DNA of 64,000 nt from contig CAYYHM010000001.1 in the NCBI GenBank assembly GCA_964471795.1, positions 20,780-84,779 of the forward strand, written 5' to 3'. Every line of letters begins with the position of its first letter. Position 1 is the first letter of the stretch. The position numbers were made by a program, and so were the translations under genes. This document shows, one piece after another, positions 3,306 to 20,499 of the stretch. Source of the DNA: an uncultured Chitinophagales bacterium (GTDB taxonomy: Bacteria; Bacteroidota; Bacteroidia; Chitinophagales; S012-47). Below the pieces are notes generated by a model. It had not been told where the DNA came from, did not search any database, and was given only the letters and a program-made list of their open reading frames with translations.

Positions 3306-4079
3306 TTATCTTCTGCCACGGTCGATAAACCGCCTGAAGTCATGGACGCTGCTGGAAAATTCGAAGGCGTCATAAATGCGGAAGATGTTTTCCGGGTCTG
3401 TAACGTATGGGTAGGCCCATTTGGCAAACCGGAGGCGTGTGCTTTCGAAGCTGAACTCCTCCAGGATCTCCCGCAATTGCCTGCTGTTGATGTTATGATG
3501 GCTTACAGCAGTCTGCGCAATATCTTCCTTGCCGCTGTCGAATCCGTTGCGCTGCATGGCGCGGCGCAGGTCGGGCAGGTCCAGGGTGTTTTGTGAATAG
3601 TATCCGCCCTGCCAAGGGTCGGGGTTCCATCCATAGCCTGTCTGCCCATACCCTGCTGACTGCTGGTGACCGCAATGCTGACTGTGTGCAGTGCATGATC
3701 CGCAGCTTGTCTGACCATATCCATTCCATCCCCGGCTGTACCGTTGTCTGTCGATTTGTATCTGTCCGTTGCGGCCGATGACTACAGAAAGCTGTTCGTT
3801 GCCGTATACCTGAATGGTGCCGTGATACAGCAGGCGGTTGGCTTGTCTGCCTCCACGCCATTCTGGTACAAATACACGTACCTGCCTGTTGCCGGGAAAT
3901 ACATCGTGGATAATCACCGATGCATCGGGTCTGTGGTTCATCGTGTATCCGTCCATCTGCACCACGATAGGCGTTCTGTCGAACGTACGGATCTCCATAG
4001 CTGCCTGATTGCCGCCCCGGGCGAGTGCCAACAGAGGTGCCAGCATCAGGACTGTCCAAATTGTTGCTTGCCGTTTCAT
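3306..4079 (-). CDS. secreted DUF4476-like protein
   Basis: The ORF track gives 3306-4109. I prefer the ATG at 4079 (MKRQATIWTVLMLAPLLALA signal peptide) because AAGGAGGTG lies 4 nt upstream of it. The C-terminal segment (FSFESTRLRFAKWAYPYVTDPENIFRIYDAFEFSSS) matches my memory of DUF4476. Confidence 0.7.
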   Translation of the reverse strand: MKRQATIWTVLMLAPLLALARGGNQAAMEIRTFDRTPIVVQMDGYTMNHRPDASVIIHDVFPGNRQVRVFVPEWRGGRQANRLLYHGTIQVYGNEQLSVVIGRNGQIQIDRQRYSRGWNGYGQTSCGSCTAHSQHCGHQQSAGYGQTGYGWNPDPWQGGYYSQNTLDLPDLRRAMQRNGFDSGKEDIAQTAVSHHNINSRQLREILEEFSFESTRLRFAKWAYPYVTDPENIFRIYDAFEFSSSVHDFRRFIDRGRR

Positions 4080-4082
4080 AAG

Positions 4083-4091
4083 CACCTCCTT
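4083..4091 (-). promoter_or_regulatory. Shine-Dalgarno-like motif AAGGAGGTG upstream of the DUF4476 gene
   Basis: The minus strand reads aAAGGAGGTGcttATG, with the ATG at 4079. Confidence 0.5.
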
Positions 4092-4197
4092 TTTCCGATG
4101 GTAAGCCAACTATTGTGCCAAACTTTTCATGTGGAATTGAAGCGCAGGCATTTGCTGCCACAGAATAGCCCCTTTCCTGTAACTTAGCGTGTCCGTC

Positions 4198-6177
4198 ATG
4201 ATTCCACAGCATGTAAAAGATCAAATCATCGCTACTGCCTCGGTTGAGGAGGTGGTGGGGGATTATGTGGCCCTCAAGCGGCGTGGCTCCAACCTCATCG
4301 GGCTGTGCCCCTTCCATCAGGAAAAAACACCTTCGTTCACCGTGTCGCCGGCTAAGGGGTTCTTCAAATGTTTTGGTTGCGGTGAAAGTGGCGACTCCGT
4401 AAGCTTTGTGATGAAGCACGATCATCTGTCCTTTCCGGAAGCGTTGCGTGCTTTGGCGAGGCGCTACAACATTGAAGTGCCCGAAGAGGAGTTGACCCCC
4501 GAACAATTGCTGGTTGCCGATGAAAAAGAGGCGTTGTTCGTCGTGATGCAGTGGGCACAGCGGTGGTTCACCGAAAAACTCGACACTGACGAGGGGAAGA
4601 GCATTGCCGTTGCCTACTTCAAGGAGCGCGGCTTTCGGCAAGAGACCATCGAACAGTTTCAGTTGGGATATGCGCCCCCCGGCTGGGAGGCCATGCTGTT
4701 GGCGGCCCATGCGGCAGGCTATCCACAAGAGCGATTGAAGGAGGTAGGTCTGGTCGGCGAAAAGGATGGCCGGCACTTCGACTTCTTCCGTGATCGGGTG
4801 ATTTTTCCGATTCACAACATCTCGGGTAAGGTGATTGCCTTTGCCGGTCGCACGCTGAAATCGGATAAAAAGCAGCCCAAATACATCAACTCACCCGAAA
4901 CAGCCATCTACAACAAGAGCGATGTGCTGTATGGGCTGCACATTGCCCGGCAGGCCATTCGGCAGGAAGACAACTGCCTGCTGGTAGAGGGCTACACGGA
5001 CGTGATTTCGTTGGTGCAGGGTGGTGTGGTAAACGTGGTGGCTTCATCAGGTACGGCCCTCACACAAGGACAGATCAGGGCAATCAGGCGGTATACGCAG
5101 CGGATCACCCTGTTGTATGATGGTGACTCTGCCGGCATCAGAGCCGCCATGCGGGGTGTGGATTTGATTCTGGAAGAAGGGATGCAGGTAAAAGTGGCTG
5201 TACTGCCGGAAGGAGAGGATCCCGACTCGTTCATGAAAAAGAACGGCGCTGCCACCTTTCGCAGCTATCTGGAAAAAGAATCCCGTGATTTCATCTTCTT
5301 CAAGATGCAGTTGCTGTTGGAAGACCATCAACACGATCCGTTCCGGCGTGCTGAGGCCATACGGGAGCTGGTGCAGACCATAGCGCTGATACCCGATGCC
5401 ATGGTGCGGCAGGACTATGTGGCACGGCTGGCCGAAACCACCAAGACGTTGGAGTCTACCTTGCTGAATGAACTCAACAAGATGCTGATTCAGCGCAAGA
5501 AGAAGGCTGCCAAGGAGATGGGAGTAGCCATGCCGCCGCCGGAAGTGGAAGCACTGGTGCAGCAGGCCGATGCAGGCTATGAAGATGAAACGGAGGAGTT
5601 GCGGTCGCACACCGATATGCAGGAGCGTGACCTCATCCGAATCCTGTTGCAACATGCCGGTCACATGATGAAAGTGCCGGTGCAGCAACCGGACGCTACA
5701 CAGGAGGAGGAGTCTGTGCTGGATTTCATCCTCAACGAGATGGACACATTCGAACAACGAATGGGTGTAGACCTCACTTTCCATCACCCGATGTGTGGCC
5801 GGATCTTCCAGATGTACCGGCAGGCCATTGAAGAGGATGGTCGAATTTTGGATTCGTCCCATTTTATCCACCACGAAGAGGAGTCGGTGCAGCAGTATGC
5901 CATCGATGTGCTCACCGCCAAGTATGCACTATCAGAAAACTGGGAGCAGCGGCATCAAATCATTCTCGACAAGGTAAACATCGACCATGATGTGCGGTCT
6001 GCCTTCTTCCACTTTGTGATACGTAGGGTTAGGATGGCACGTGATGCCAACCGACAGGAGATGCGTAGAGCGGGGCTGCCCTATGAGGAAGAGCGGGCTT
6101 TGCAACAACGGGAAATGACACTGATGAAGGTGGAGTTCGAATTGGCGAAGGCGCTAAAGATCGTTGTGATGCGGTAG
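4198..6177 (+). CDS. dnaG: DNA primase
   Basis: CHC2 zinc finger (CPFHQEKTPSFTVSPAKGFFKCFGCGESGD) and TOPRIM (LVEGYTDVISL, LLYDGDSAG). The track starts at GTG 4189. The ATG at 4198 gives the typical MIPQ... N-terminus. Confidence 0.95.
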   Translation: MIPQHVKDQIIATASVEEVVGDYVALKRRGSNLIGLCPFHQEKTPSFTVSPAKGFFKCFGCGESGDSVSFVMKHDHLSFPEALRALARRYNIEVPEEELTPEQLLVADEKEALFVVMQWAQRWFTEKLDTDEGKSIAVAYFKERGFRQETIEQFQLGYAPPGWEAMLLAAHAAGYPQERLKEVGLVGEKDGRHFDFFRDRVIFPIHNISGKVIAFAGRTLKSDKKQPKYINSPETAIYNKSDVLYGLHIARQAIRQEDNCLLVEGYTDVISLVQGGVVNVVASSGTALTQGQIRAIRRYTQRITLLYDGDSAGIRAAMRGVDLILEEGMQVKVAVLPEGEDPDSFMKKNGAATFRSYLEKESRDFIFFKMQLLLEDHQHDPFRRAEAIRELVQTIALIPDAMVRQDYVARLAETTKTLESTLLNELNKMLIQRKKKAAKEMGVAMPPPEVEALVQQADAGYEDETEELRSHTDMQERDLIRILLQHAGHMMKVPVQQPDATQEEESVLDFILNEMDTFEQRMGVDLTFHHPMCGRIFQMYRQAIEEDGRILDSSHFIHHEEESVQQYAIDVLTAKYALSENWEQRHQIILDKVNIDHDVRSAFFHFVIRRVRMARDANRQEMRRAGLPYEEERALQQREMTLMKVEFELAKALKIVVMR

Positions 6178-8418: not shown

Positions 8419-9849
8419 CTACAACTCATTATACGTGCGGTGCAGCGTACCTGCAGACCACCGGAGGCCTGCCTGAGCCTTGCCCTGCTTGGCCTGAAGC
8501 TCTGCCAACTTCAGTGCAGCTTCCACGAATTTCGATTCCCGGCTGTTGACTAGAAAAAGTGAGCTTTCGCCTAAGAAGAACAACCTGCGCTCTGCATCCA
8601 GCATGATTTGATAGTTGGAAACCGCATCGGTATACAAATCCAGCTGACGATACAGGTTGTCCAGGTCGTTGTAGTAGGCTTGCACCTTGTTTTGTATCTC
8701 TAAGCTCTTCTGTGCACGCTCCAATGCCGCCTCCTGTAGCTTGATGTCTGCCAGCTGCAGGGCACCACGTTCCTTGCGCAGGAAAAGAGGCATGGAAAAG
8801 GTAATCCCGTACTTGTAGTTTTCCATGGTATTATTCAGCCACTCATTGGTGGTTACCGTAGTGGTGAGCGCATTGTAGGTGAGATCCAGAGAAGGTTTCA
8901 ATTGTTCCATCTTCCATCGGCGGTCAACTTCCAGCGCTGCAATCTTGAAATCGTACTGTATCAGTTCCGGATGGCTGACAGCCAGCCTACCCAGCACGTT
9001 GGCCAGCGAGTCAAGCGGTGGAAGTGCCTGAGTAGCGGTGTAGTCCTGTGCCACAGGTATAGCCGAGTTGTCCAGTTCCAGTGGGATGAAGTCGTCGAAC
9101 CACAAGAAGGTGCTCAGCATCAACGCCGAGTTGGTCCTGTTCACACGGGCATCATTCAGCAATAGTTGCAGGTTTTGTACTTGTATCCTGGCTTCAACAC
9201 TGTCTATCGCCGGTCGGTCGCCCTGATTGAAACTTTCCTGTACCGCTTGAAATCGGAACTCCGCCAACTCTACTGTCTCTTGCAGGATTTGCTCCTGATA
9301 GTAGGCCGTGTACCAGTCCCAGTATGCTTTTGCTGCTGCCAGCAACAAATCGTTCAAGATGGCTTGCTGCTGTGCCTCGGTAGCTGCGGCCATCAGTTGC
9401 GCCTGCCGCAGCATGTTTCTTCTTTCATCGATAAACAGCCCCTGCCCGATGGGGATGGAGATACCGGCTGCCCACAATCCGGCTTCGGGAACGTTGCGTT
9501 CCGGATTCAGGAACTGGCCGGTTGTGGTTTCATAGCCTACTTTGGCCTCAATGCCGAACCAGGTAGGTACCTTCAGCGCCCCTTCCCCGATGTTCCAGTA
9601 TAGTTTCTCATCGAATTCTTTTCTGGCAACACCGCCTTCCAGTTTGGGATCGAAGGCACCACGTGACTGTAGCAGGGCAGCATCACCCGCCCGCACAGCC
9701 AAAGCGGCTTGTTGCGCCATCGGATGATAGTCCAGCACTACTGCAAACAGATCCTGCAGCGAAAACACTCTACTGGTGTCCTGCGCTACGGCCGGACGAT
9801 GCAGGGCAATCAGGACCAGAATTATACACATGACTATCCGTAGCGGCAT
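8419..9849 (-). CDS. TolC-family outer membrane efflux protein
   Basis: About 476 aa with a signal peptide MPLRIVMCIILVLIALHRPAVAQD and long coiled alpha/beta repeats typical of outer membrane factors. The ATG at 9849 lies 4 nt after the hlyD stop. The track's 9930 start would overlap hlyD. Confidence 0.85.
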   Translation of the reverse strand: MPLRIVMCIILVLIALHRPAVAQDTSRVFSLQDLFAVVLDYHPMAQQAALAVRAGDAALLQSRGAFDPKLEGGVARKEFDEKLYWNIGEGALKVPTWFGIEAKVGYETTTGQFLNPERNVPEAGLWAAGISIPIGQGLFIDERRNMLRQAQLMAAATEAQQQAILNDLLLAAAKAYWDWYTAYYQEQILQETVELAEFRFQAVQESFNQGDRPAIDSVEARIQVQNLQLLLNDARVNRTNSALMLSTFLWFDDFIPLELDNSAIPVAQDYTATQALPPLDSLANVLGRLAVSHPELIQYDFKIAALEVDRRWKMEQLKPSLDLTYNALTTTVTTNEWLNNTMENYKYGITFSMPLFLRKERGALQLADIKLQEAALERAQKSLEIQNKVQAYYNDLDNLYRQLDLYTDAVSNYQIMLDAERRLFFLGESSLFLVNSRESKFVEAALKLAELQAKQGKAQAGLRWSAGTLHRTYNEL

Positions 9850-9853
9850 CGGC

Positions 9854-11221
9854 TTACTTTGAGGAGTCGGTGGTTGCAGTGGCGTTGGGTAGCACATCCG
9901 GGTTGGTGTAAAAATCCGGTGGGAATCCATTCAGCTGACGCCAGATCTCGTACCAAATGGGTACATCTTTCAGCAAGGCCATTGTGCTGGCACCGGATCC
10001 TACCCGAATGCCGTCAGGCCAGGGATAGGCGTCTTTATCGGGAGAAATCAGAATACGGTATTTGCCATTGTCGCTGATGAACTTATCAATGGCCACCACC
10101 CGGCCAGAGAACGTACCGAAAGAAGAATTGGGCCATCCGCTGAATACTATCGCCGGCCAGCCGTCAAACTGTATCATCACGCGTTGATCAATGGCGATCA
10201 GAGGTAAGTCCAGCGGTCGGATATACATCTCAACCGCCAGTTCGTTGTTGGCAGGCATGATGGTGAGGATGGCTTCCCCTTCCTTCACGGTTTCACCAAT
10301 ACCTGTTTTGATGGCCTTAGTGATGTAGCCATTCTGTGGTGCCGTGATGAAGTAGAATCCTGATCGCCGTTCATAATTGGCCAGTTGATTCTGCATCTTG
10401 GTAACCAAAGCCTGTGCATCGTATAGCATGGATAGGGTAGAAAACTTATCCGATTCGGCTTTGGCAAGCTTGTCACGGAACTCGTTGTCTACAGTGTTCA
10501 ACTCCATCGCGGCATTCAACAATTCATTTCTACTGGTAAGCAGCTTGTTTTCGGCACTTATTTTCTTGGCAATAGCATCTTGTAGTCGTATCCTGCGGCT
10601 TTCCAGATCAGTAAGCGCCTTCAAACCATCATTATACATGCTTTCCATACGCTTGTATTGACTGTCGGCGACGGCCAATTGCGTAATCGATGCTTGTAGG
10701 TCAATAGAGTCTGATTCTACTTTCAGACGGGCCTGTATCAATTTGTTGCGTGTCTGTTCAATCTTGAGTAGCCGATTCGCCCGCAGCGCCTGTATCTGCT
10801 GTTCCAGTGCTTGAACCTTGTCCTCATACGAGGCCACGGCTTGCTGCTTGTTGGCGATCTGGTCCTCCTGTCGGGTAATCAGTTGCGGATCAAAGTAGTC
10901 ATCCTTGATTTCAGAAACCTGCACTATGGTGTCTCCTGCCTGCACATAGTCGCCTTCCTGCACGTACCACTTCTCGATGCGGCCTGCAATTACCGATTGC
11001 ATAGTTTGAGGTCGCTTATCCGGCTGGAGTGAGGTTACATACCCACGTGCCCGGATGTTTTGGGTCCATGGCAAAAACATCATGGCCAAAACCAGTATCA
11101 AGGTTCCGATGAGAAACCTCGACAAAACCCTGCCGGACCGGGTCGGCAATATCTTGGTAAAAGCCGAATACCGGGATTCATTAATCCTTGAGGAAATATT
11201 GTTTTCGCTGATGTTAAGCAT
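9854..11221 (-). CDS. HlyD-family membrane fusion / secretion protein
   Basis: A single N-terminal TM (FLIGTLILVLAMMFLPW), a lipoyl-like hairpin (QEGDYVQAGDTIV) and a long coiled coil. The ATG at 11221 overlaps the ABC stop (ATGCTTAA). Confidence 0.85.
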   Translation of the reverse strand: MLNISENNISSRINESRYSAFTKILPTRSGRVLSRFLIGTLILVLAMMFLPWTQNIRARGYVTSLQPDKRPQTMQSVIAGRIEKWYVQEGDYVQAGDTIVQVSEIKDDYFDPQLITRQEDQIANKQQAVASYEDKVQALEQQIQALRANRLLKIEQTRNKLIQARLKVESDSIDLQASITQLAVADSQYKRMESMYNDGLKALTDLESRRIRLQDAIAKKISAENKLLTSRNELLNAAMELNTVDNEFRDKLAKAESDKFSTLSMLYDAQALVTKMQNQLANYERRSGFYFITAPQNGYITKAIKTGIGETVKEGEAILTIMPANNELAVEMYIRPLDLPLIAIDQRVMIQFDGWPAIVFSGWPNSSFGTFSGRVVAIDKFISDNGKYRILISPDKDAYPWPDGIRVGSGASTMALLKDVPIWYEIWRQLNGFPPDFYTNPDVLPNATATTDSSK

Positions 11222-12944
11222 CGAAGACCTCTTTAAACCAGCTGTTTTGCTGTAGTTCTGGGTAAGTTCCTTCCTGAACAATCTCGCCATTGTCCAGAAT
11301 GATTATCCGATCGCATCGTTTGGCAATATCACTTTCATTCGACACTACTACCAGCGTCCAGGCATTGGAGGCGTTGGTGAGACAGTCGAGGATACGCAGG
11401 CGTTCACGGGGTTCCAGTGCATTCATGGCATCCTCTATCAACAACAGCCGTGGCTTGTCGGCAATAGCGCGCGCCAGGATGATTTTACGAAGGACGGATC
11501 TGGGAAGTTTACGGCCTTCAGGGTCGATTTCTTCTTCATACCCTCGTGGCAGTGTCTTTACAAAGTCGATTAAGCCGACCTGCTGTACGGCCCATTTGAC
11601 ATTTTCCATGGTAGCTCTTTCCCTGCCAACGGCGATATTCTCGAGCAAGGTGCCTTTGAATATGTCTTCATGCGACAGGCTGTCCCCGATAAACGACCGC
11701 AGGCTGCCAATGTTCAGGTTGCCGATAGGCAAATCATTGTAGCTGATGGAGCCAATCGGACAGTCGTACAGACCGGCCAGCAGGTGCACCAGAGTAGACT
11801 TTCCCGAGCCGTTGTGCCCGGCAATACACAGCCGTTCGCCCGGCTTGATGGCCAGGTTCATGTCCCTGATGATAGGTTCCTGACTGTAGGGGAAAGAATA
11901 GGTCACCTTCTTTAGCTCTATCGCCATACCCTTTTCCTGCTCCTCATGGGTAAAACAGGCACCCTCCTCGTTTTCAAGGGGAAGGTCGGTTACATTGCCT
12001 ATCTTCTCCAGTGCGGTCAGCACGTCGTAGATGTTTTCCATGGTCAAGATCAGCTTCTCCACTGAGTTGATGATCAGCAGGATGATGATTTCGGCAGCAA
12101 CGAACTGCCCCAGATTCAGTTGCTGGTCAATCACCAGCAATGATCCTACAATCAAAAGACCTGCAGCTACCAGTAGTTTGAAGCCTACCATGTTGGCAAA
12201 CTGAATCACCAGCACCCGGAAATGCGATCGCCTGTACTTCAGGTAGTTGCCTACCAGGCCGTCTACGCGCTGCATCGGAAGATCAGTCTGCCCAGCCAGC
12301 TTGAAGGTGAACATGGTACGGGCTACTTCTTCCAGCCAATGCGCTACCTCATACTTGTACTTCGACTCCATGATACTGGTGCGCAATCCCTGTGGTCCGG
12401 TGTAGCGCACAATCAGCAGGATTATCAACACCAGCAATAGACCGAACACGATGAAGAATGGATGATACAGGCTAAGGAGAATGAGGCCGAAAATGATCTG
12501 CAGCAAGGCAGAACTCAGGTCTATCAGGATCTTGCTCAAGCCCTTTTGTACGGTTAGCGTATCAAAGAACCGATTCACCAGCTCCGGCGCATACGACTTG
12601 TACACGGCGGCGAACTTGATACGCGGGATGCGGTAGGCGAACTCGAAAGCCGAACGGGCGAAGATGCGCTGTTGAATGCTCTCGGAGATGACCATTTGCA
12701 TGATCTGCAGGAAACCGGCTGCCAGTATACCCAGCAGCACTACACCTACCAAAATACCCCATGACGTGCTTACCTCACCACCTTGTATGAGGTTGATGAT
12801 GGCCTGTATGCCCAAGGGTAGGGATAGGGTAACCAGTCCGGTGAAGATGGCATATAGGTAAATGTGCGTGATCTCACGCTTGTCAAGCGCAATGAGCTTC
12901 AATAGCCGCTTAAAGGGTGGTATGCCCGGAACAGATCCTGCCAT
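11214..12944 (-). CDS. ABC exporter half-transporter (TMD-NBD) with atypical nucleotide-binding domain
   Basis: 576 aa with an N-terminal six-TM exporter-type domain. The C-terminal NBD has Walker A GHNGSGKST, but the signature reads LPRSV and Walker B reads LLLIED. No C39 peptidase domain is present. Confidence 0.85.
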   Translation of the reverse strand: MAGSVPGIPPFKRLLKLIALDKREITHIYLYAIFTGLVTLSLPLGIQAIINLIQGGEVSTSWGILVGVVLLGILAAGFLQIMQMVISESIQQRIFARSAFEFAYRIPRIKFAAVYKSYAPELVNRFFDTLTVQKGLSKILIDLSSALLQIIFGLILLSLYHPFFIVFGLLLVLIILLIVRYTGPQGLRTSIMESKYKYEVAHWLEEVARTMFTFKLAGQTDLPMQRVDGLVGNYLKYRRSHFRVLVIQFANMVGFKLLVAAGLLIVGSLLVIDQQLNLGQFVAAEIIILLIINSVEKLILTMENIYDVLTALEKIGNVTDLPLENEEGACFTHEEQEKGMAIELKKVTYSFPYSQEPIIRDMNLAIKPGERLCIAGHNGSGKSTLVHLLAGLYDCPIGSISYNDLPIGNLNIGSLRSFIGDSLSHEDIFKGTLLENIAVGRERATMENVKWAVQQVGLIDFVKTLPRGYEEEIDPEGRKLPRSVLRKIILARAIADKPRLLLIEDAMNALEPRERLRILDCLTNASNAWTLVVVSNESDIAKRCDRIIILDNGEIVQEGTYPELQQNSWFKEVFDA

Positions 12945-12949
12945 AGTGT

Positions 12950-13627
12950 TTAGGATTGCAGCATGCTAAAGGCCATGCAGGTGAAAAATCGGGTGATGTC
13001 CTGATCATCTTTGCGGATGTCGCTGAGGGACGACAGATGTTCGGAAAAGAACTTCTGTTGGTGTGCGCCCTCAATGATGGTTGATACCAGTGTATTAGGG
13101 AACTCGTATCGGGGGTCCACCTCAACAATCATATCACTGATCCGCCTGCATAGCCTTTTGTAGCCGCTGAAATATCCTTCCTTGTTTTCGTTATCAATTG
13201 ATTTGGTGAAATAGGTCTTTGCCGATTCCTGAACTACAATCTGATACAGCAACACTTCATTGATGTGGCTGAAATCAGAGTCTTCCTTTACCGGCTCCGA
13301 CACAATCTGAATGGCTTTCTTAAGGCGTTCAACCGGATCACTTATGTTCACAGTGGAAAAAACCAAGCGGTATTCCATCCATCCCCAGTACCACGCAGTA
13401 AGGTAGACCAATAGTTTGTGCTTGTTTTCAAAATACCGGTAGATGGTGCTCTCCGGTGATTGAATTCGTTGCCCCAACTTCTTGAAAGTAAACTTCTCAA
13501 ATCCTATCTCATCAATCAGCTCAATGCTGTGTTGTATGATCTTCCTGCCCAATTCGCTGGAATCAGGATTCTTGAGGTACAACTTTTCATTGACGCGGAT
13601 AGTGATTTGACCCAACAACTCCTGCAT
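12950..13627 (-). CDS. TetR/AcrR-family transcriptional regulator
   Basis: 225 aa with an N-terminal HTH region (GFEKFTFKKLGQRIQSPESTIYRYFENKHKLL). It sits first in the operon, 5 nt upstream of the ABC gene. Confidence 0.85.
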   Translation of the reverse strand: MQELLGQITIRVNEKLYLKNPDSSELGRKIIQHSIELIDEIGFEKFTFKKLGQRIQSPESTIYRYFENKHKLLVYLTAWYWGWMEYRLVFSTVNISDPVERLKKAIQIVSEPVKEDSDFSHINEVLLYQIVVQESAKTYFTKSIDNENKEGYFSGYKRLCRRISDMIVEVDPRYEFPNTLVSTIIEGAHQQKFFSEHLSSLSDIRKDDQDITRFFTCMAFSMLQS

Positions 13628-13856: not shown

Positions 13857-14552
13857 TTAGCCCTCCAGATTGATCACAATCGCTACACTGCGGGTAAATA
13901 GATGTTGCAGCACTGTGGAGATAGTCAGGTTGCGATCCAGGGAGTGGACATCGAAAACCCCTTGAGACAGCCGCAGCTCGGGCGCAAAGATGAAGTAGGG
14001 GAAGTAGAACTCAAAGCCAAAGCCATACTCCAACAACAGGTCGTGCTGTGCTACCTTGATGAGGTCTTCCGCATTGCGGGCTTTCGCATTGGAGGCTAGG
14101 TCCAACGAATATTTGACGCCACCAAGCACATAGAACCGCATATCCTTGTAGGGATCACTTTTGAACTTCAGCAACAGTGGCAATTCAAAGTTGATGGATT
14201 CAATGGTCTGTTTAAACGTAGTATCCAGAAAGGTAGAATAGCTAAGGTTGCGTTCTGCGAAGGTCATAGAGGGCAGAAACCGGAAGTCGAAGTTCTTGCC
14301 AAGGTGTACGTTGGTGATGATGCCAAGGTTGAATCCGGGGCCTTTCAACGATTCGATGCCGGCAATGGAATCGTTGAACAGGAATCCTTCTGACTGACGA
14401 ATACGGAACTCTGAGCGATTGTAGCCCATCAGGATACCGAAGTGAGCCCATTTGTTGTCGAATCGCTGCGTAAACGACCAGGCATTGAACTGGCCTGCGG
14501 CCGTAGATGCCATGCCAAGAATCAGGATCGCTATCAGGATATGCTGCCTCAT
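13857..14552 (-). CDS. outer-membrane beta-barrel protein, PorT/SprT-like (OMP_b-brl_2 type)
   Basis: Signal peptide MRQHILIAILILGMASTAAGQ, alternating beta-strand pattern, the FELPLLLKFK motif and an aromatic-rich C-terminus. The track start at 14567 is TTG, so I prefer the ATG at 14552. Confidence 0.6.
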   Translation of the reverse strand: MRQHILIAILILGMASTAAGQFNAWSFTQRFDNKWAHFGILMGYNRSEFRIRQSEGFLFNDSIAGIESLKGPGFNLGIITNVHLGKNFDFRFLPSMTFAERNLSYSTFLDTTFKQTIESINFELPLLLKFKSDPYKDMRFYVLGGVKYSLDLASNAKARNAEDLIKVAQHDLLLEYGFGFEFYFPYFIFAPELRLSQGVFDVHSLDRNLTISTVLQHLFTRSVAIVINLEG

Positions 14553-14645
14553 GTTGCTGCTTTCCAACGCAAATCACAATCAGGTATTGTGGGAGCGCTG
14601 GCGATGAATTGTTGTCGCGTGCAAAGATAGCACAAGGCAAAACGA

Positions 14646-14657: not shown

Positions 14658-15299
14658 ATGCAAATCCGTTCCTCCGTGTTTACCGGCAGCTACACCCGGT
14701 TGGATGACTGCCCTGAGGCCATTCGTCCGGAATACGCTTTCATCGGTCGTTCCAATGTGGGCAAGTCATCGCTCATCAACATGCTGACCGACAAAACGCA
14801 GTTGGCCAAAACGTCACAGACGCCCGGTAAAACGCAGTTGATCAACTATTTCCTGATCAATCACGAGAAAGGCAAGCACGGCAGTGGGTGGTATCTGGTG
14901 GATCTGCCGGGGTATGGCTATGCCAAGGCATCCAAGACGTCGCGGCAGAAGTGGGAGAAGATGATTCGCAGGTATCTGGCCATGCGGAAATCCTTGCAGT
15001 GTGTGTTTGTGCTGATCGACTCCCGCATACCACCACAGGCCTTGGATCTGGAGTTCGTAAACTGGTTGGGAGAGATGGGTGTGCCCTTCATTTTGCTCTT
15101 CACCAAGGCGGATAAGCAAACGAACAAGAAGACGCTTGCGCAAACGGATGCCTTCCTGAAAGCCATGCAGGAGAGCTGGGATACGCTACCGCAACACATC
15201 ATCACGTCCGCACAAACCAAGCAGGGTAGAGAAGAAGTGCTGGCGTTGATTGCAGATGTCAACAGCCGGTTTGAGCCGGTAGTCGATCAGAAGATGTAA
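14658..15299 (+). CDS. engB: ribosome biogenesis GTP-binding protein YsxC/EngB
   Basis: G1 motif GRSNVGKSSLIN, G3 DLPGYG and NKxD-like TKADK in a protein of about 210 aa. Confidence 0.92.
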   Translation: MQIRSSVFTGSYTRLDDCPEAIRPEYAFIGRSNVGKSSLINMLTDKTQLAKTSQTPGKTQLINYFLINHEKGKHGSGWYLVDLPGYGYAKASKTSRQKWEKMIRRYLAMRKSLQCVFVLIDSRIPPQALDLEFVNWLGEMGVPFILLFTKADKQTNKKTLAQTDAFLKAMQESWDTLPQHIITSAQTKQGREEVLALIADVNSRFEPVVDQKM

Positions 15300-15877
15300 G
15301 AGAATCGCAGTGTAGCGATGTTGTTCACCATACCGCCACTCTTCAAATTGCTATTTGGGTTGTAGGCAATCGGCCATAGTGAATATGCGACACGGCCATT
15401 GATGCCGAAATGATCGCGGATAACGAAGGTGATTTCCCCCATGATGTTCCAGTCACGGTCGGAGGGAATAGGATCCCGCTCCGATGTGTCGATGCCATTT
15501 TCGATCCGCGTAAACCGGAATAGCTGGCTGTAGGAGACACCCGCGCCGAAGATCATGCCGTTCTTATCGTGATAATGCACCAGCAAGGGTATCTCTGCAT
15601 AGGTGAGGGTAAGGTTCGAATTGCGTCCGAAACTCTGGTCTACCCGGGAGGTCTTCGCCCCTTTTTCGGCATACAGTAGCTCGAAACTCAGCGACCACTC
15701 AGGCTGCAAGAAGGCATAGGCTTTTACGCCGGCATTCCAGCCCACTTTATCGAATCCCGCCAGATTATCCCCATCAATCTGCGCCATGTTGATGCCTCCC
15801 AGCAAGGCAGCACGGAATGTCTGGCCGGGTAGCCAGACAGCCATGGCCATAAGAGCGCACAGGATGATTGCTTTCAT
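15287..15877 (-). CDS. small outer-membrane beta-barrel (porin-family) protein
   Basis: Signal peptide MKAIILCALMAMAVWLPGQ, the YAEIPLLVHY motif and a C-terminal ...LRFSYIF. Its 3' end overlaps the engB 3' end by 13 nt. Confidence 0.7.
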   Translation of the reverse strand: MKAIILCALMAMAVWLPGQTFRAALLGGINMAQIDGDNLAGFDKVGWNAGVKAYAFLQPEWSLSFELLYAEKGAKTSRVDQSFGRNSNLTLTYAEIPLLVHYHDKNGMIFGAGVSYSQLFRFTRIENGIDTSERDPIPSDRDWNIMGEITFVIRDHFGINGRVAYSLWPIAYNPNSNLKSGGMVNNIATLRFSYIF

Positions 15878-17016: not shown

Positions 17017-17067
17017 TTGTATTTTACAGCCTCATTTACTCATTATCCAGTCTTACGATTCCATTTC

Positions 17068-20000
17068 ATGAGATATCTCAGTAGCCTTATTCTGCTATTC
17101 CTTGCGCTGAACAGCCCGGCACAGGTGATGGACAAGCCTTCCCCCTATGATATAGAACGTGCACCTGCCTGGGCGCAATTGATGTATGGTGACAAACCCA
17201 ATGTTTTCGAAGTTGATAGAGCCTACAGGAGTTACTACGCAGTTCATGATTTCGAGAAAAGCTACCACACACAGTATTACAAGAGATGGCGCCGACAGGT
17301 AGAAGGATTCATCGATATGGATGGCTATGTGGTAGGCCCAACGGAGCAGGATGTGCTGACAGGGCGCAGTACTTTTAGGGCGGCAGGGGGCTCATCAGGT
17401 GCCGGAAACTGGTCGTTGGTAGGTCCGCTCATCGCCTACAACACCTCAGCCTCCCCAACAGCGGTACAATCCAACATCTACAGTATCGATCAATCGGCTG
17501 CTCATCCCAATATCCTATACTGTGGCTCAGAAACCGGCGAGGTATATCGGAGCAACGATGGAGGACAGTCATGGACAAACGTGAGCCTGTTGCAGGCATT
17601 CGACGGGGGTATCCTGTCTGTTGAAGTCCACCCGGCAGATACCAACACCGTGTTTGTAGGGTCGGGGAGCTACATCTTCAAGTCGACGGATGGCGGCAAC
17701 ACATGGAGCCAGTCGTTGTACAACTGGCAGCTGCAACCGCATGAGCTGTTGGTGATACCTTCGCAGCCCAATACGGTGCTGGCAGCAACCTCGAAGGGTG
17801 TTTTCAGAAGTACGGACGGTGGTCAGGTGTGGAGCCAGCTATATCCGGAGCGTGCCTTCGATCTGGCATGTAATACCGGCAACGACAGTATCTTGTATCT
17901 CCTGAAACACAATGATTCCCTCAACATCTGCCAGTTCTTGCGGTCTGCCGATGCGGGCGCAACTTTTTCTGTACAGTCTAATGGCTGGTATGCCTCTGTC
18001 GACCCCAATCGGAACGATGGCGGAGGCAGGCTGGCGGTCAGCAATGCCAACCCCAACTATGTGTATGCCTATCTGATCGGAGAATCAAAAGCGGATGACA
18101 ACGGCTACATCGGCGTGTACAAGAGCACGGATGGAGGCACTACCTGGACTCTCCCCAACGGGCCTGCCGGTGGACCGTACGATTCGGTGCACATCAACCT
18201 GGCCATCGGCACGGTAGGCTGGCAATACCATCAGGGCTTCTACAATTGTGCCATCATGGCCTCCCATACCGACCCCGAGCAGATCAGGGTAGGGGGCCTC
18301 AATCTATATGGCTCCGACGATGGCGGCGCCACCTTTTATCCACTGGCAGGGTATGTGGGCGGTCCCTACAGCATGCATGTAGACATGCAGGATTTCCGGG
18401 CTATCGGAAACACTACCTGGATCACCACGGATGGCGGCATCTATCGCTCTGATGATTTCTTCAATACCAACGGATTCGAGGTGCGTATGTATGGCATTCA
18501 CAGCGCTGATTACTGGGGCTTCGGAAGTGGCTGGAATGAAGATGTGCTAATAGGTGGTTTGTACCACAACGGAAATCTGTCGTTCCATGAAAACTACGGG
18601 CATGGCAATTTTCTGCAATTGGGCGGTGGTGAGCCGGCCAGTGGATATGTGAATCAGGGTGAAAACCGCCGGGTATATTCTTCGGACATCAATGGCAGGA
18701 TACTGCCACTTGTGATAGGTGACCCGGTGAAGGAGGTAGGGTTTGGCATCGACCCCAATGAGCGCTATTGGGCAGTAGAAAGTACCGAGTTGGAGTTCGA
18801 CCCGAGATGTTACTCCATCGCCTATACCGGTAAGGATCACCAGCTGTGGAAGACAGAGGACAAAGGTGCCACCTTCCGGCTGCTGGTATCATTCGGCACC
18901 GATCCGGACAATCGGATCACCTACATAGAGCCTTCCTGGTCCAACCCCGACGTGTTGTACGTGTGTCAGCAAAACATCAATCCAATTTCAAGAGGAATGG
19001 TGTGGAAGTCAACCGATGGTGGCAAGACCTGGCGAGCCATCAGCATTCCCAGCGTTGGCAATACCCGTAAGATGCTGTTGCAGGTGGACCCTACGGATGA
19101 TGACAATCTATGGATCGCATTTGCCGAAACCGGCAACGGACAAAAAGTCTACCGTTCTATCAATGGAGGCGCTACCTGGATCAATATCACCACTGCTACC
19201 CTCAACAATCAGTCGCCGCGATCATTAAACCTGATCGGTGGTACAGATGGAGGCGTTTACCTGACTACCCAACATGCGGTCTTTTATCGCAACAACACGA
19301 TGTCCGACTGGGTAGATGTCGGTAATGGGCTTCCGGTGGTAGTGAACAGTAACATTGCCCGCCCGTTCTATCGCGATGGCAAGATACGCATAGCCACCTA
19401 CGGCAGGGGCATCTGGGAGAGCGAGTTGTATGAGCCGCAAGACGTTCCCGTAGCGCAGATCATGGTCGACAAGTTGGGCGCAGTGAGCCACTGCGAGCCG
19501 GATACTTTCCGGTATGTATGCCATTCCATGTTGCAACACGACAATGCCACCTGGGAGTGGACGTTTCAGGGTGGTACACCTGACATAGCTACCACCTGGC
19601 AGGCAGACGTGGCGTATACAACACCCGGCACATACCTCACCACGCTGAAAGTGACTGATGCCGACGGTGATGTGAGCATCGATTCCTTATACATCACCAT
19701 AGAACCTTTTCAGCCGCTGGCCATGTTGGAGGAAGACTTCGAAATGGCTTTCCCTCCCCAAGGATTTTCCATAGTCAACCCGGACGAAAGCATAACCTGG
19801 GAGTTGAAAGATGATGTAGGCGGGTATGGCACTAGCAATCAGTGCATGTTCATCAGAGGCTACGACTACACAGCTGTAGGGCAGGATGATGATGCAGTAG
19901 TTAGCGTCGACATGACGGCAATGTATGATGCATGGCTCACCTTCGACGTGGCTTATGCCCGCTGGGGTGGGGGCTATTCCGATTCGCTGGAGGTATTGGT

Positions 20001-20499
20001 TTCCACGGATTGTGGCGCCACTGAGCAGACATTGTATTTCAAGGGAGGCACTGAACTGGCTACAGCGCCGGACTTTCAGGATGGCTGGTTTGTTCCTGCC
20101 GATACGCAGTGGCGAACCGACAGCGTGGATCTATCGGCATTCTTCGGGTACGAAGATGTCATCATCACGTTTCGCCATCATTGTGGGTGGGGGCAGAATA
20201 CCTACCTGGATAACATCAGTATTGAAGCACAATCCATCGTAGGTGTCCAAGAGCCTGATGTTGAAGAGTACCTCTTTGTATACCCTAACCCGGTTTCCGG
20301 TGATGGCCTCATACATATCGCCTCCAGTCTGGCAGAGCCAATTCAAGTTGACATCTATTCCATGGATGGCAAACGAGTGTATCGTGGTAGTCATGCAGCA
20401 GGCACAGCAATATCTTCCCATGGTGTATCATCGGGATCCTATGTGTATGTCCTGTCTGCCAGCCGGCTCATCCAAAGAGGGGTGTTGGTAGTTCCATGA
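17068..20499 (+). CDS. large secreted BNR/Asp-box repeat (sortilin/GH74-like) protein with PKD-like domain and type A T9SS C-terminal sorting domain
   Basis: About ten S-x-D-x-G-x-T-W boxes (SNDGGQSWTN, STDGGNTWSQ, STDGGTTWTL, STDGGKTWRA and others) and the signal peptide MRYLSSLILLFLALNSPAQV. The C-terminus reads LFVYPNPVSGDGLIHI...GSYVYVL.... The track start at 17017 is TTG. Confidence 0.85.
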   Translation: MRYLSSLILLFLALNSPAQVMDKPSPYDIERAPAWAQLMYGDKPNVFEVDRAYRSYYAVHDFEKSYHTQYYKRWRRQVEGFIDMDGYVVGPTEQDVLTGRSTFRAAGGSSGAGNWSLVGPLIAYNTSASPTAVQSNIYSIDQSAAHPNILYCGSETGEVYRSNDGGQSWTNVSLLQAFDGGILSVEVHPADTNTVFVGSGSYIFKSTDGGNTWSQSLYNWQLQPHELLVIPSQPNTVLAATSKGVFRSTDGGQVWSQLYPERAFDLACNTGNDSILYLLKHNDSLNICQFLRSADAGATFSVQSNGWYASVDPNRNDGGGRLAVSNANPNYVYAYLIGESKADDNGYIGVYKSTDGGTTWTLPNGPAGGPYDSVHINLAIGTVGWQYHQGFYNCAIMASHTDPEQIRVGGLNLYGSDDGGATFYPLAGYVGGPYSMHVDMQDFRAIGNTTWITTDGGIYRSDDFFNTNGFEVRMYGIHSADYWGFGSGWNEDVLIGGLYHNGNLSFHENYGHGNFLQLGGGEPASGYVNQGENRRVYSSDINGRILPLVIGDPVKEVGFGIDPNERYWAVESTELEFDPRCYSIAYTGKDHQLWKTEDKGATFRLLVSFGTDPDNRITYIEPSWSNPDVLYVCQQNINPISRGMVWKSTDGGKTWRAISIPSVGNTRKMLLQVDPTDDDNLWIAFAETGNGQKVYRSINGGATWINITTATLNNQSPRSLNLIGGTDGGVYLTTQHAVFYRNNTMSDWVDVGNGLPVVVNSNIARPFYRDGKIRIATYGRGIWESELYEPQDVPVAQIMVDKLGAVSHCEPDTFRYVCHSMLQHDNATWEWTFQGGTPDIATTWQADVAYTTPGTYLTTLKVTDADGDVSIDSLYITIEPFQPLAMLEEDFEMAFPPQGFSIVNPDESITWELKDDVGGYGTSNQCMFIRGYDYTAVGQDDDAVVSVDMTAMYDAWLTFDVAYARWGGGYSDSLEVLVSTDCGATEQTLYFKGGTELATAPDFQDGWFVPADTQWRTDSVDLSAFFGYEDVIITFRHHCGWGQNTYLDNISIEAQSIVGVQEPDVEEYLFVYPNPVSGDGLIHIASSLAEPIQVDIYSMDGKRVYRGSHAAGTAISSHGVSSGSYVYVLSASRLIQRGVLVVP

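Follow-up and report, generated by a model that had tools for sequence, protein, structure and literature searches.

Alternating access driven by ATP is the defining feature of ATP-binding cassette (ABC) exporters, and the locus described here raises the question of what powers such an exporter when its ATPase domain no longer carries the residues that split ATP. The gene in question lies in a stretch of 64,000 nucleotides (the window) from an uncultured Chitinophagales bacterium (contig CAYYHM010000001.1, positions 20,780 to 84,779) and codes for an ABC-fold half-transporter that shares an operon with a TetR-family regulator, a HlyD-type adaptor and a TolC-type channel. A first-pass annotation of the window had described an intact Walker A motif beside divergence at every other catalytic motif, and had proposed a distinct exporter family with altered or absent ATP hydrolysis. 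Our analysis leads us to favour, with a probability of roughly 0.55, a TetR-controlled tripartite exporter whose nucleotide-binding domain (NBD) would bind nucleotide without useful hydrolysis and whose export would be energised otherwise, most plausibly by protons. Like hundreds of its relatives, the protein is missing the ATP-splitting residues, and the pump probably runs on another energy source.

The motifs were placed with a phmmer search against all PDB chains, in which residues 343-565 of the protein aligned to each of the two P-glycoprotein NBDs without a gap in any motif. The protein, its two domains and the motif positions are as follows.

11214-12944, minus strand: ABC-fold half-transporter of 576 amino acids (aa), with a domain of six transmembrane (TM) helices and a degenerate NBD (open reading frame (ORF), Pfam, phmmer, AlphaFold)
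11955-12917, minus strand: transmembrane domain (TMD), residues 10-330; no other part of the operon is as well conserved
11217-11927, minus strand: degenerate NBD, residues 340-576 (Pfam, phmmer, orthologue alignment)
11892-11894, minus strand: A-loop aromatic residue Phe351, retained; canonical Tyr (phmmer)
11793-11819, minus strand: Walker A GHNGSGKST (376-384), intact; GSSGCGKST in P-glycoprotein (phmmer)
11673-11675, minus strand: Ser424 at the Q-loop position; canonical Gln (phmmer)
11493-11507, minus strand: LPRSV (480-484) at the signature position; canonical LSGGQ (phmmer and DNA)
11430-11447, minus strand: LLLIED (500-505) at Walker B and the catalytic Glu; canonical ILLLDE (phmmer and AlphaFold strand)
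11412-11423, minus strand: NALE at the D-loop position; canonical SALD (phmmer)
11337-11339, minus strand: Asn536 at the switch (H-loop) position; canonical His (phmmer)

The DNA reads cttcccagatccgtc at 11507-11493 for the signature position and ctgttgttgatagaggat at 11447-11430 for the Walker B strand. Every motif assignment of the first-pass annotation (intact Walker A, Ser at the Q-loop, LPRSV, LLLIED, NALE and an Asn switch) was placed alike by phmmer, and its motif coordinates and DNA strings agree exactly with the window sequence. The AlphaFold model has strands at 500-504 and 530-534; the first ends at E504, so that E504 takes the place of the Walker B Asp and D505 that of the catalytic Glu, and Asn536 stands two residues past the second, the place expected for the switch His. 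We had considered that the motifs might have been misaligned by eye, and this was ruled out by the gapless alignment together with its agreement with the strand positions of the model. The canonical catalytic set (Q-loop Gln, LSGGQ, Walker B Asp and Glu, D-loop, switch His) is not found in the protein, and the motifs expected to bind nucleotide, the Walker A P-loop and the A-loop aromatic, are present. Since both are retained, the domain most likely still binds nucleotide.

The overall architecture is that of a half-transporter, with a six-helix ABC_membrane domain (PF00664, 40.3 bits, cut-off 28) fused to an ABC_tran NBD (PF00005), the latter a weak match at 59.1 bits (cut-off 25). The protein begins about 20 residues ahead of TM1, and its AlphaFold model, with a predicted local distance difference test (pLDDT) score of 75.5, shows six long helices plus the NBD. 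Foldseek returned the core of PCAT1 (TM-score 0.77) and HlyB (0.76) as best structural matches, within a group at 0.7-0.77 that includes TM287/288 and Sav1866, and a search with the TMD alone against PDB sequences matched only ComA.

The degenerate motif state is a property of the whole family. Among 198 non-redundant orthologues, the hydrolytic motifs (Q-loop, signature, the Walker B-Glu pair and switch His) are non-canonical in 198/198, a recurrence that is not explained by chance. Walker A is held tightly, with G376 and G381 in 198/198 and both K382 and S/T383 in 193/198, and position 351 of the A-loop is Tyr or Phe in 190/198. The Q-loop position 424 is occupied by S, H, A, T, D, M or N, and Gln is not among its common residues. 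At the signature, 480-484 follows the pattern L-P/S-x-S-[IV] (Leu in 157, Pro in 164 or Ser in 31, and the second Ser in 155 of the 198). Position 504, that of the Walker B Asp, is Glu in 125, Thr in 38 and Lys in 11; position 505, that of the catalytic Glu, is Asp in 129, Glu in 34 and Asn in 15; and the switch position 536 is Asn in 96, Ser in 33, Asp in 30 and Ala in 11. The D-loop position is variable as well. Residues of the NBD core are kept, N436 and R492 in 198/198 and F429 in 195/198.

We had also looked for a conserved replacement catalytic motif, and this was ruled out by the drift at positions 504, 505, 424 and 536. The first-pass annotation had raised the possibility that LPRSV, IED and SNES are conserved new motifs; only L-P-x-S proved semi-conserved, and with drift at the Walker B, catalytic and switch positions, a novel catalytic chemistry conserved across the family is disfavoured. 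Its proposal of a distinct family is supported: the family is large and its hydrolytic motifs are non-canonical. To judge by its sequences, the subfamily is one in which the nucleotide-binding elements were retained and the hydrolytic ones lost without any single replacement chemistry.

In ordinary ABC transporters the NBD is the more conserved domain. Here, the median identity to the window protein over 118 homologues was 68% for the TMD and 47% for the NBD, and the columns conserved at 90% or more made up 45% of the TMD and 15% of the NBD, so that domain conservation is inverted relative to the ordinary pattern. The ratio of non-synonymous to synonymous substitution (dN/dS, omega) between the window gene and one 97%-identical relative was 0.018 over its full length, and by domain 0.011 in the TMD and 0.032 in the NBD, with comparable values for the neighbouring genes; these values are approximate, since a dS of about 1 is near saturation. 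The ABC gene is under strong purifying selection, and the loss of motifs is a family trait rather than decay. The earlier description of the gene as intact, full length and functional-looking agrees with this omega of 0.018 and with the conserved synteny described below.

When 1.84 billion cluster representatives were searched with a profile, 150 family-like representatives of 50%-identity clusters were returned, all with E <= 1e-171; together with the window protein they gave a set of 151 sequences. A complete canonical motif set was found in 0/151, and two or more canonical features in only three sequences. The full Walker A is present in 84/151 (56%), and its Lys in 110/151, being lost in 41/151. 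The set divides into 86 short forms and 65 long forms, the latter amounting to about 43% of the 50%-identity cluster representatives and carrying an N-terminal extension of about 150-190 aa. Long forms (for example P0122, P0128 and P0132, and the loci L085 7124-9310 and L086 8001-10244) are encoded in the same ABC-adaptor-channel module without a second ABC gene. Their extension had no Pfam match and no match to PDB sequences, C39 and C39-like domains included; possibly it represents a C39-like domain that has diverged very far.

Some of the further relatives found by tblastn of plasmid and chromid records have lost the P-loop altogether.

L088 5911-7593, L089 4980-6698, L090 3958-5664: Sphingomonadales relatives, on plasmids or chromids of Croceicoccus, Novosphingobium and Sphingobium

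NCBI gives these proteins the label 'ABC transporter transmembrane domain-containing protein', and each of their genes heads the same three-gene module, ahead of HlyD-family and TolC-family genes. They keep the hallmarks of the family TMD (NR[FY]FD, QKS, SFYHPFF, AHWLE, GQLVAAEL and FYD) and carry no GK[ST] P-loop, acidic Walker B or signature; the one tested against Pfam, from Croceicoccus marinus, had no ABC_tran match. With a hidden Markov model (HMM) of the family TMD alone they scored 169-182 bits, while four canonical PCAT/ABC exporters reached 10-38 bits; with an HMM of the NBD alone they scored 28-48 bits, against 128-169 for the canonical exporters. High TMD-only and low NBD-only scores mark the Sphingomonadales proteins as specific relatives with a vestigial NBD, and the scores of the canonical exporters with the two models are consistent with an NBD that is normally the better conserved domain.

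Within the membrane domain, one residue stands out as the best candidate for coupling transport to another energy source.

12090-12092, minus strand: Glu285 in TM6 (GQFVAAEI), a near-invariant membrane-embedded carboxylate (family alignments)

Glu285 lies within the hydrophobic core, is present in 99% of the 198 orthologues and is kept as GQLVAAEL in the Sphingomonadales relatives; ComA carries Asn at the equivalent position. Gln47, Gln149 and Tyr160-His161 are likewise conserved in the Bacteroidota and Sphingomonadales clades alike. In the 151-sequence set, E88, K197, W203 and K314 are found in 151/151 and R238 in 150/151, followed by E285, K297 and Y160 (149 each), K256 (144, with Arg in 6 more) and H161 (141). 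A salt bridge between K256 and E285 was considered and rejected, as their helix positions place them at unequal depths in the membrane and K256 is absent from the Sphingomonadales relatives.

The other genes of the operon were placed on the minus strand at 8419-13627 of the window, where four tightly packed genes follow one another.

12950-13627, minus strand: TetR-family regulator, the first gene of the operon (Pfam TetR_N, E=5e-7)
9854-11221, minus strand: HlyD-type membrane fusion protein, 455 aa (Pfam HlyD_3 and Biotin_lipoyl_2)
8419-9849, minus strand: TolC-type outer membrane factor, with its probable start at Met28 of a long ORF (Pfam OEP, E=6.5e-38, in two stretches)

Transporter, membrane fusion protein and outer membrane factor are thus co-encoded, which at gene level is the layout of a tripartite efflux or type 1 secretion assembly. 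The stop of the TetR gene lies 5 nt ahead of the ABC start. The adaptor scores 84 bits with the NCBIfam model type_I_hlyD, under the cut-off of that model, and it likely starts at position 11221, with Met24 of the long ORF: alignments of homologues begin at residue 19-24, and gene callers on a 97%-identical contig (L083/L084) give an adaptor of 455 aa with the same 8-nt overlap with the ABC gene. The longest ORFs of the adaptor (9854-11290, minus strand) and of the TolC gene (8419-9930, minus strand) overshoot by about 23 and 27 codons respectively, the likely start of the latter being 9849. With starts at 11221 and 9849, the adaptor overlaps the gene before it by 8 nt and the TolC gene follows after a gap of 4 nt, as would fit translational coupling, and at 11221-11214 (ATGCTTAA) the adaptor ATG and the ABC stop codon overlap, as the first-pass annotation had recognised. 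It had also counted a single ABC gene in the operon, and no other ABC domain was found within the 64-kb window. No substrate gene was found near the exporter operon; a TetR regulator is there instead, and its presence suggests that the exporter may handle a small molecule.

This arrangement is shared by relatives, mainly of the Bacteroidota. A protein search returned thousands of relatives, of which the best 120 are 54-100% identical and belong to the Bacteroidota, and a scan of one genome per species found a relative in at least 561 genomes, almost all of Bacteroidota; the matches listed include cultured Salegentibacter, Roseivirga, Putridiphycobacter and Flavilitoribacter. Synteny was read from 80 loci of different species, each count being restricted to loci with enough flank: a HlyD-type adaptor follows the ABC gene in 75/75, a TolC-type channel lies downstream of the adaptor in 69/69, and in 35/73 related loci the gene immediately upstream, on the same strand, is a TetR homologue. 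In 1/80 loci (L078 only) another ABC exporter gene was seen within 8 kb, at 3520-4629 on the minus strand; it lies on the opposite strand to the module, with an identity of 26%, and probably has no relation to it. Two proteins of the family, 50-54% identical, come from bins labelled Akkermansia sp. (L012) and Glaciecola sp. (L080), both metagenome-assembled genomes, and these labels outside the Bacteroidota probably reflect mis-binning rather than lateral transfer. The poultry pathogen Riemerella anatipestifer, found by the same tblastn search as the Sphingomonadales relatives, has a member (WP_004920602.1) with adaptor and TolC genes (L087 5953-10307, NZ_CP081938.1), whose motifs read GDTASGKS, LPYST and LILLKE, with Gln at the switch. 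NZ_CP081938.1 is labelled a plasmid, yet it carries murB, rplU, fabG and rsmI and looks like a chromosomal fragment.

We infer from these observations nucleotide binding without hydrolysis, a homodimer, proton coupling and a small-molecule substrate. In this family, the NBD of a type IV exporter resembling those of the PCAT and type I secretion system (T1SS) families has been stripped of its hydrolytic motifs, and constraint has come to be strongest in the membrane domain. In the window subfamily, in which the P-loop and the A-loop were kept, nucleotide would be bound and not hydrolysed at a useful rate, and the role of the NBD would be in dimerisation or regulation, as at the one degenerate site of a heterodimeric exporter, here at both sites. 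The energy for export may then come from the proton gradient, through Glu285 of TM6 and the neighbouring invariant polar residues. A precedent is found in MsbA without its NBD, which showed delta-pH-dependent transport that requires TM carboxylates (PMC4979069).

A broader reading, which we hold more tentatively and at somewhat less than even odds, is that a large natural superfamily, of Bacteroidota with the P-loop-less relatives in Sphingomonadales, left ATP hydrolysis for an ion-gradient drive in adaptor/TolC pumps, with the NBD surviving as a nucleotide sensor or a structural relic. As part of it, and at the same joint strength, the superfamily would represent a transition from primary to secondary transporter caught at several stages of NBD decay.

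Several points weigh against the proton-driven exporter that we favour. The tight conservation of Walker A in the subfamily shows that the nucleotide site still matters, and an acidic residue is usually found at 504 or 505. The Sphingomonadales clade does not share K256 or E296/K297, and the case for proton coupling is drawn from the conservation of E285 and from analogy. The AlphaFold model is of a monomer, predicted with moderate confidence, the selection estimates are approximate for the reason given above, and the search for a partner gene covered the 64-kb window and 8 kb around the 80 loci.

The first two of these points feed the best of the alternatives, that the exporter is still driven by ATP through a slow or non-canonical hydrolysis that uses the P-loop, the acidic pair 504/505, and D421 and E426 near the Q-loop. 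The retention of the Walker A Lys, S/T383 and the A-loop aromatic in the proportions given above would fit such a mechanism, as would the purifying selection on the NBD and the presence of D421 in 167/198 and E426 in 178/198 orthologues. However, positions 504, 505, 424 and 536 drift, with Lys or Thr found at the position of the Mg-binding Asp, and in the wider set D421 falls to 38/151 and E426 to 56/151, while the Walker A Lys is lost in the 41/151 already mentioned. The Sphingomonadales relatives have no P-loop at all, and in P-glycoprotein the change of the catalytic Glu to Asp leaves residual ATPase activity only (PMC7756269). We consider ATP-driven transport unlikely for these reasons.

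Somewhat less likely still is that the protein is a nucleotide-gated or constitutive conduit or scaffold that is not energised, with the dimer docking adaptor and channel, a substrate moving down its gradient and ATP acting as the gate, as in CFTR. A P-loop retained without catalytic residues would fit such gating, and the invariant E88, K197, W203, R238 and K314, which lie in cytoplasmic helical extensions, could lock a conformation. On the other hand, relatives without a P-loop cannot be gated by ATP, an invariant Glu285 embedded in the membrane points rather to ion coupling, and the characterised adaptor/TolC tripartite systems all have an energised inner-membrane component (PMC8277102).

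A heterodimer with a canonical half-transporter encoded elsewhere, which would have one consensus and one degenerate site, seems improbable. The scope of the partner search, limited to the window and the 8-kb flanks, leaves some room for it, and among exporters it is common to find heterodimers in which one site is degenerate (PMC7756269). No second ABC gene was found in the window, however, none is conserved within 8 kb in 80 species, and the long-form relatives also stand alone. Each ABC ATP site takes Walker A, Walker B and the H-loop from one chain and the signature from the other. The window chain is defective on both faces, and any homodimer or heterodimer that contains it would therefore have two impaired sites. 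A canonical partner elsewhere, which the first-pass annotation had counted against its own reading, would fail to overturn it, since the chain is degenerate on the Walker B/H-loop and signature faces both. Finally, the variation of catalytic positions among homologues might suggest a decaying pseudogene or a neutrally drifting NBD, but this is effectively refuted by dN/dS and synteny, with low omega in gene and NBD, an intact, full-length frame in all orthologues recovered, operon order and translational coupling conserved in 75/75 loci, and a conserved NBD core (N436, R492, F429).

Comparison with known systems places the window protein, by structure and sequence, closest to the PCAT/T1SS exporters (PCAT1, ComA, HlyB), with which it shares the type IV exporter fold as well as a HlyD-type adaptor and a TolC-type channel. 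Unlike them, it has no hydrolytic NBD motifs, no C39 or C39-like domain and no substrate gene nearby. The closest NCBIfam models are those of NHLP/LssB/bacteriocin/HlyB exporters, and no model reaches its cut-off. Membership of the HlyB family (TIGR01846; 178 bits, cut-off 725.55; no N-terminal C39-like domain) and of the PCAT family (TIGR01193; 183.8 bits, cut-off 523.85; no Peptidase_C39 match) was rejected, the lack of a C39 domain and scores far under curated cut-offs both indicating that the protein should not be filed with either.

The heterodimeric exporters with a degenerate site (TM287/288, TmrAB, BmrCD, Rv1273c/72c, CFTR and TAP) resemble it in the Asp at the catalytic Glu position, a switch residue other than His and a non-consensus signature. 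Their degenerate site binds ATP stably and has a structural role, and the defective elements are split over two chains so that one consensus site remains (PMC7756269). In the window, by contrast, one chain, alone in its operon, carries every degenerate element, and both sites are degenerate. The heterodimeric class was rejected as a home for the protein, a single ABC gene being present in the operon, in the window and in 79/80 related loci.

A third comparison is with the membrane domains of MsbA and LmrA without their NBD, since transport by MsbA-MD depends on the proton gradient and uses TM carboxylates (PMC4979069), the window family having its own invariant carboxylate in TM6. MsbA-MD was engineered by cutting down a transporter that depends on ATP; the window family is natural, and proton coupling in it is proposed by analogy. 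In EmrAB-TolC, of the MFS, and AcrAB-TolC, of the RND family, adaptor and TolC-type channel serve an inner-membrane transporter that is not driven by ATP, and the TetR regulation of the window operon is typical of drug and metabolite efflux pumps. Unlike in the MFS and RND pumps, the inner-membrane component here is an ABC exporter fold with a vestigial NBD. In function, the nearest counterparts of the system may be the tripartite pumps of the MFS or RND type, here with an ABC fold as the base. Full-text searches of open-access papers, and two reviews, gave no description of the window family or of an exporter with both sites degenerate.

Elsewhere in the window, a gene at 17017-20499 (plus strand) codes for a 1160-aa BNR/sortilin-like protein, flanked by OMP_b-brl_2 genes at 13857-14567 and 15287-15877; a 97%-identical orthologue of this protein has a weak match to Por_Secre_tail, a type IX secretion sorting domain. 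Together these genes point to a Bacteroidota origin of the window, probably Saprospiraceae-like.

To our knowledge, the tripartite ABC systems described so far (HlyB, MacB, PCATs) all use ATP hydrolysis, and we know of degenerate ATP sites only beside a consensus site. A widespread, strongly selected family in which both sites are degenerate and the membrane domain is the conserved part contradicts the ATP-driven picture of ABC exporters. Taken with its relatives that have no P-loop, it is evidence from nature that an exporter of the ABC fold can function while turning over no ATP. These observations bear on the long dispute over whether the proton-coupled activity of the MsbA and LmrA membrane domains is physiological. 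Several members are present in cultured strains, so that the question of the energy source is directly testable, and by its energetics the family would make up a fourth class of tripartite pump in the Bacteroidota.

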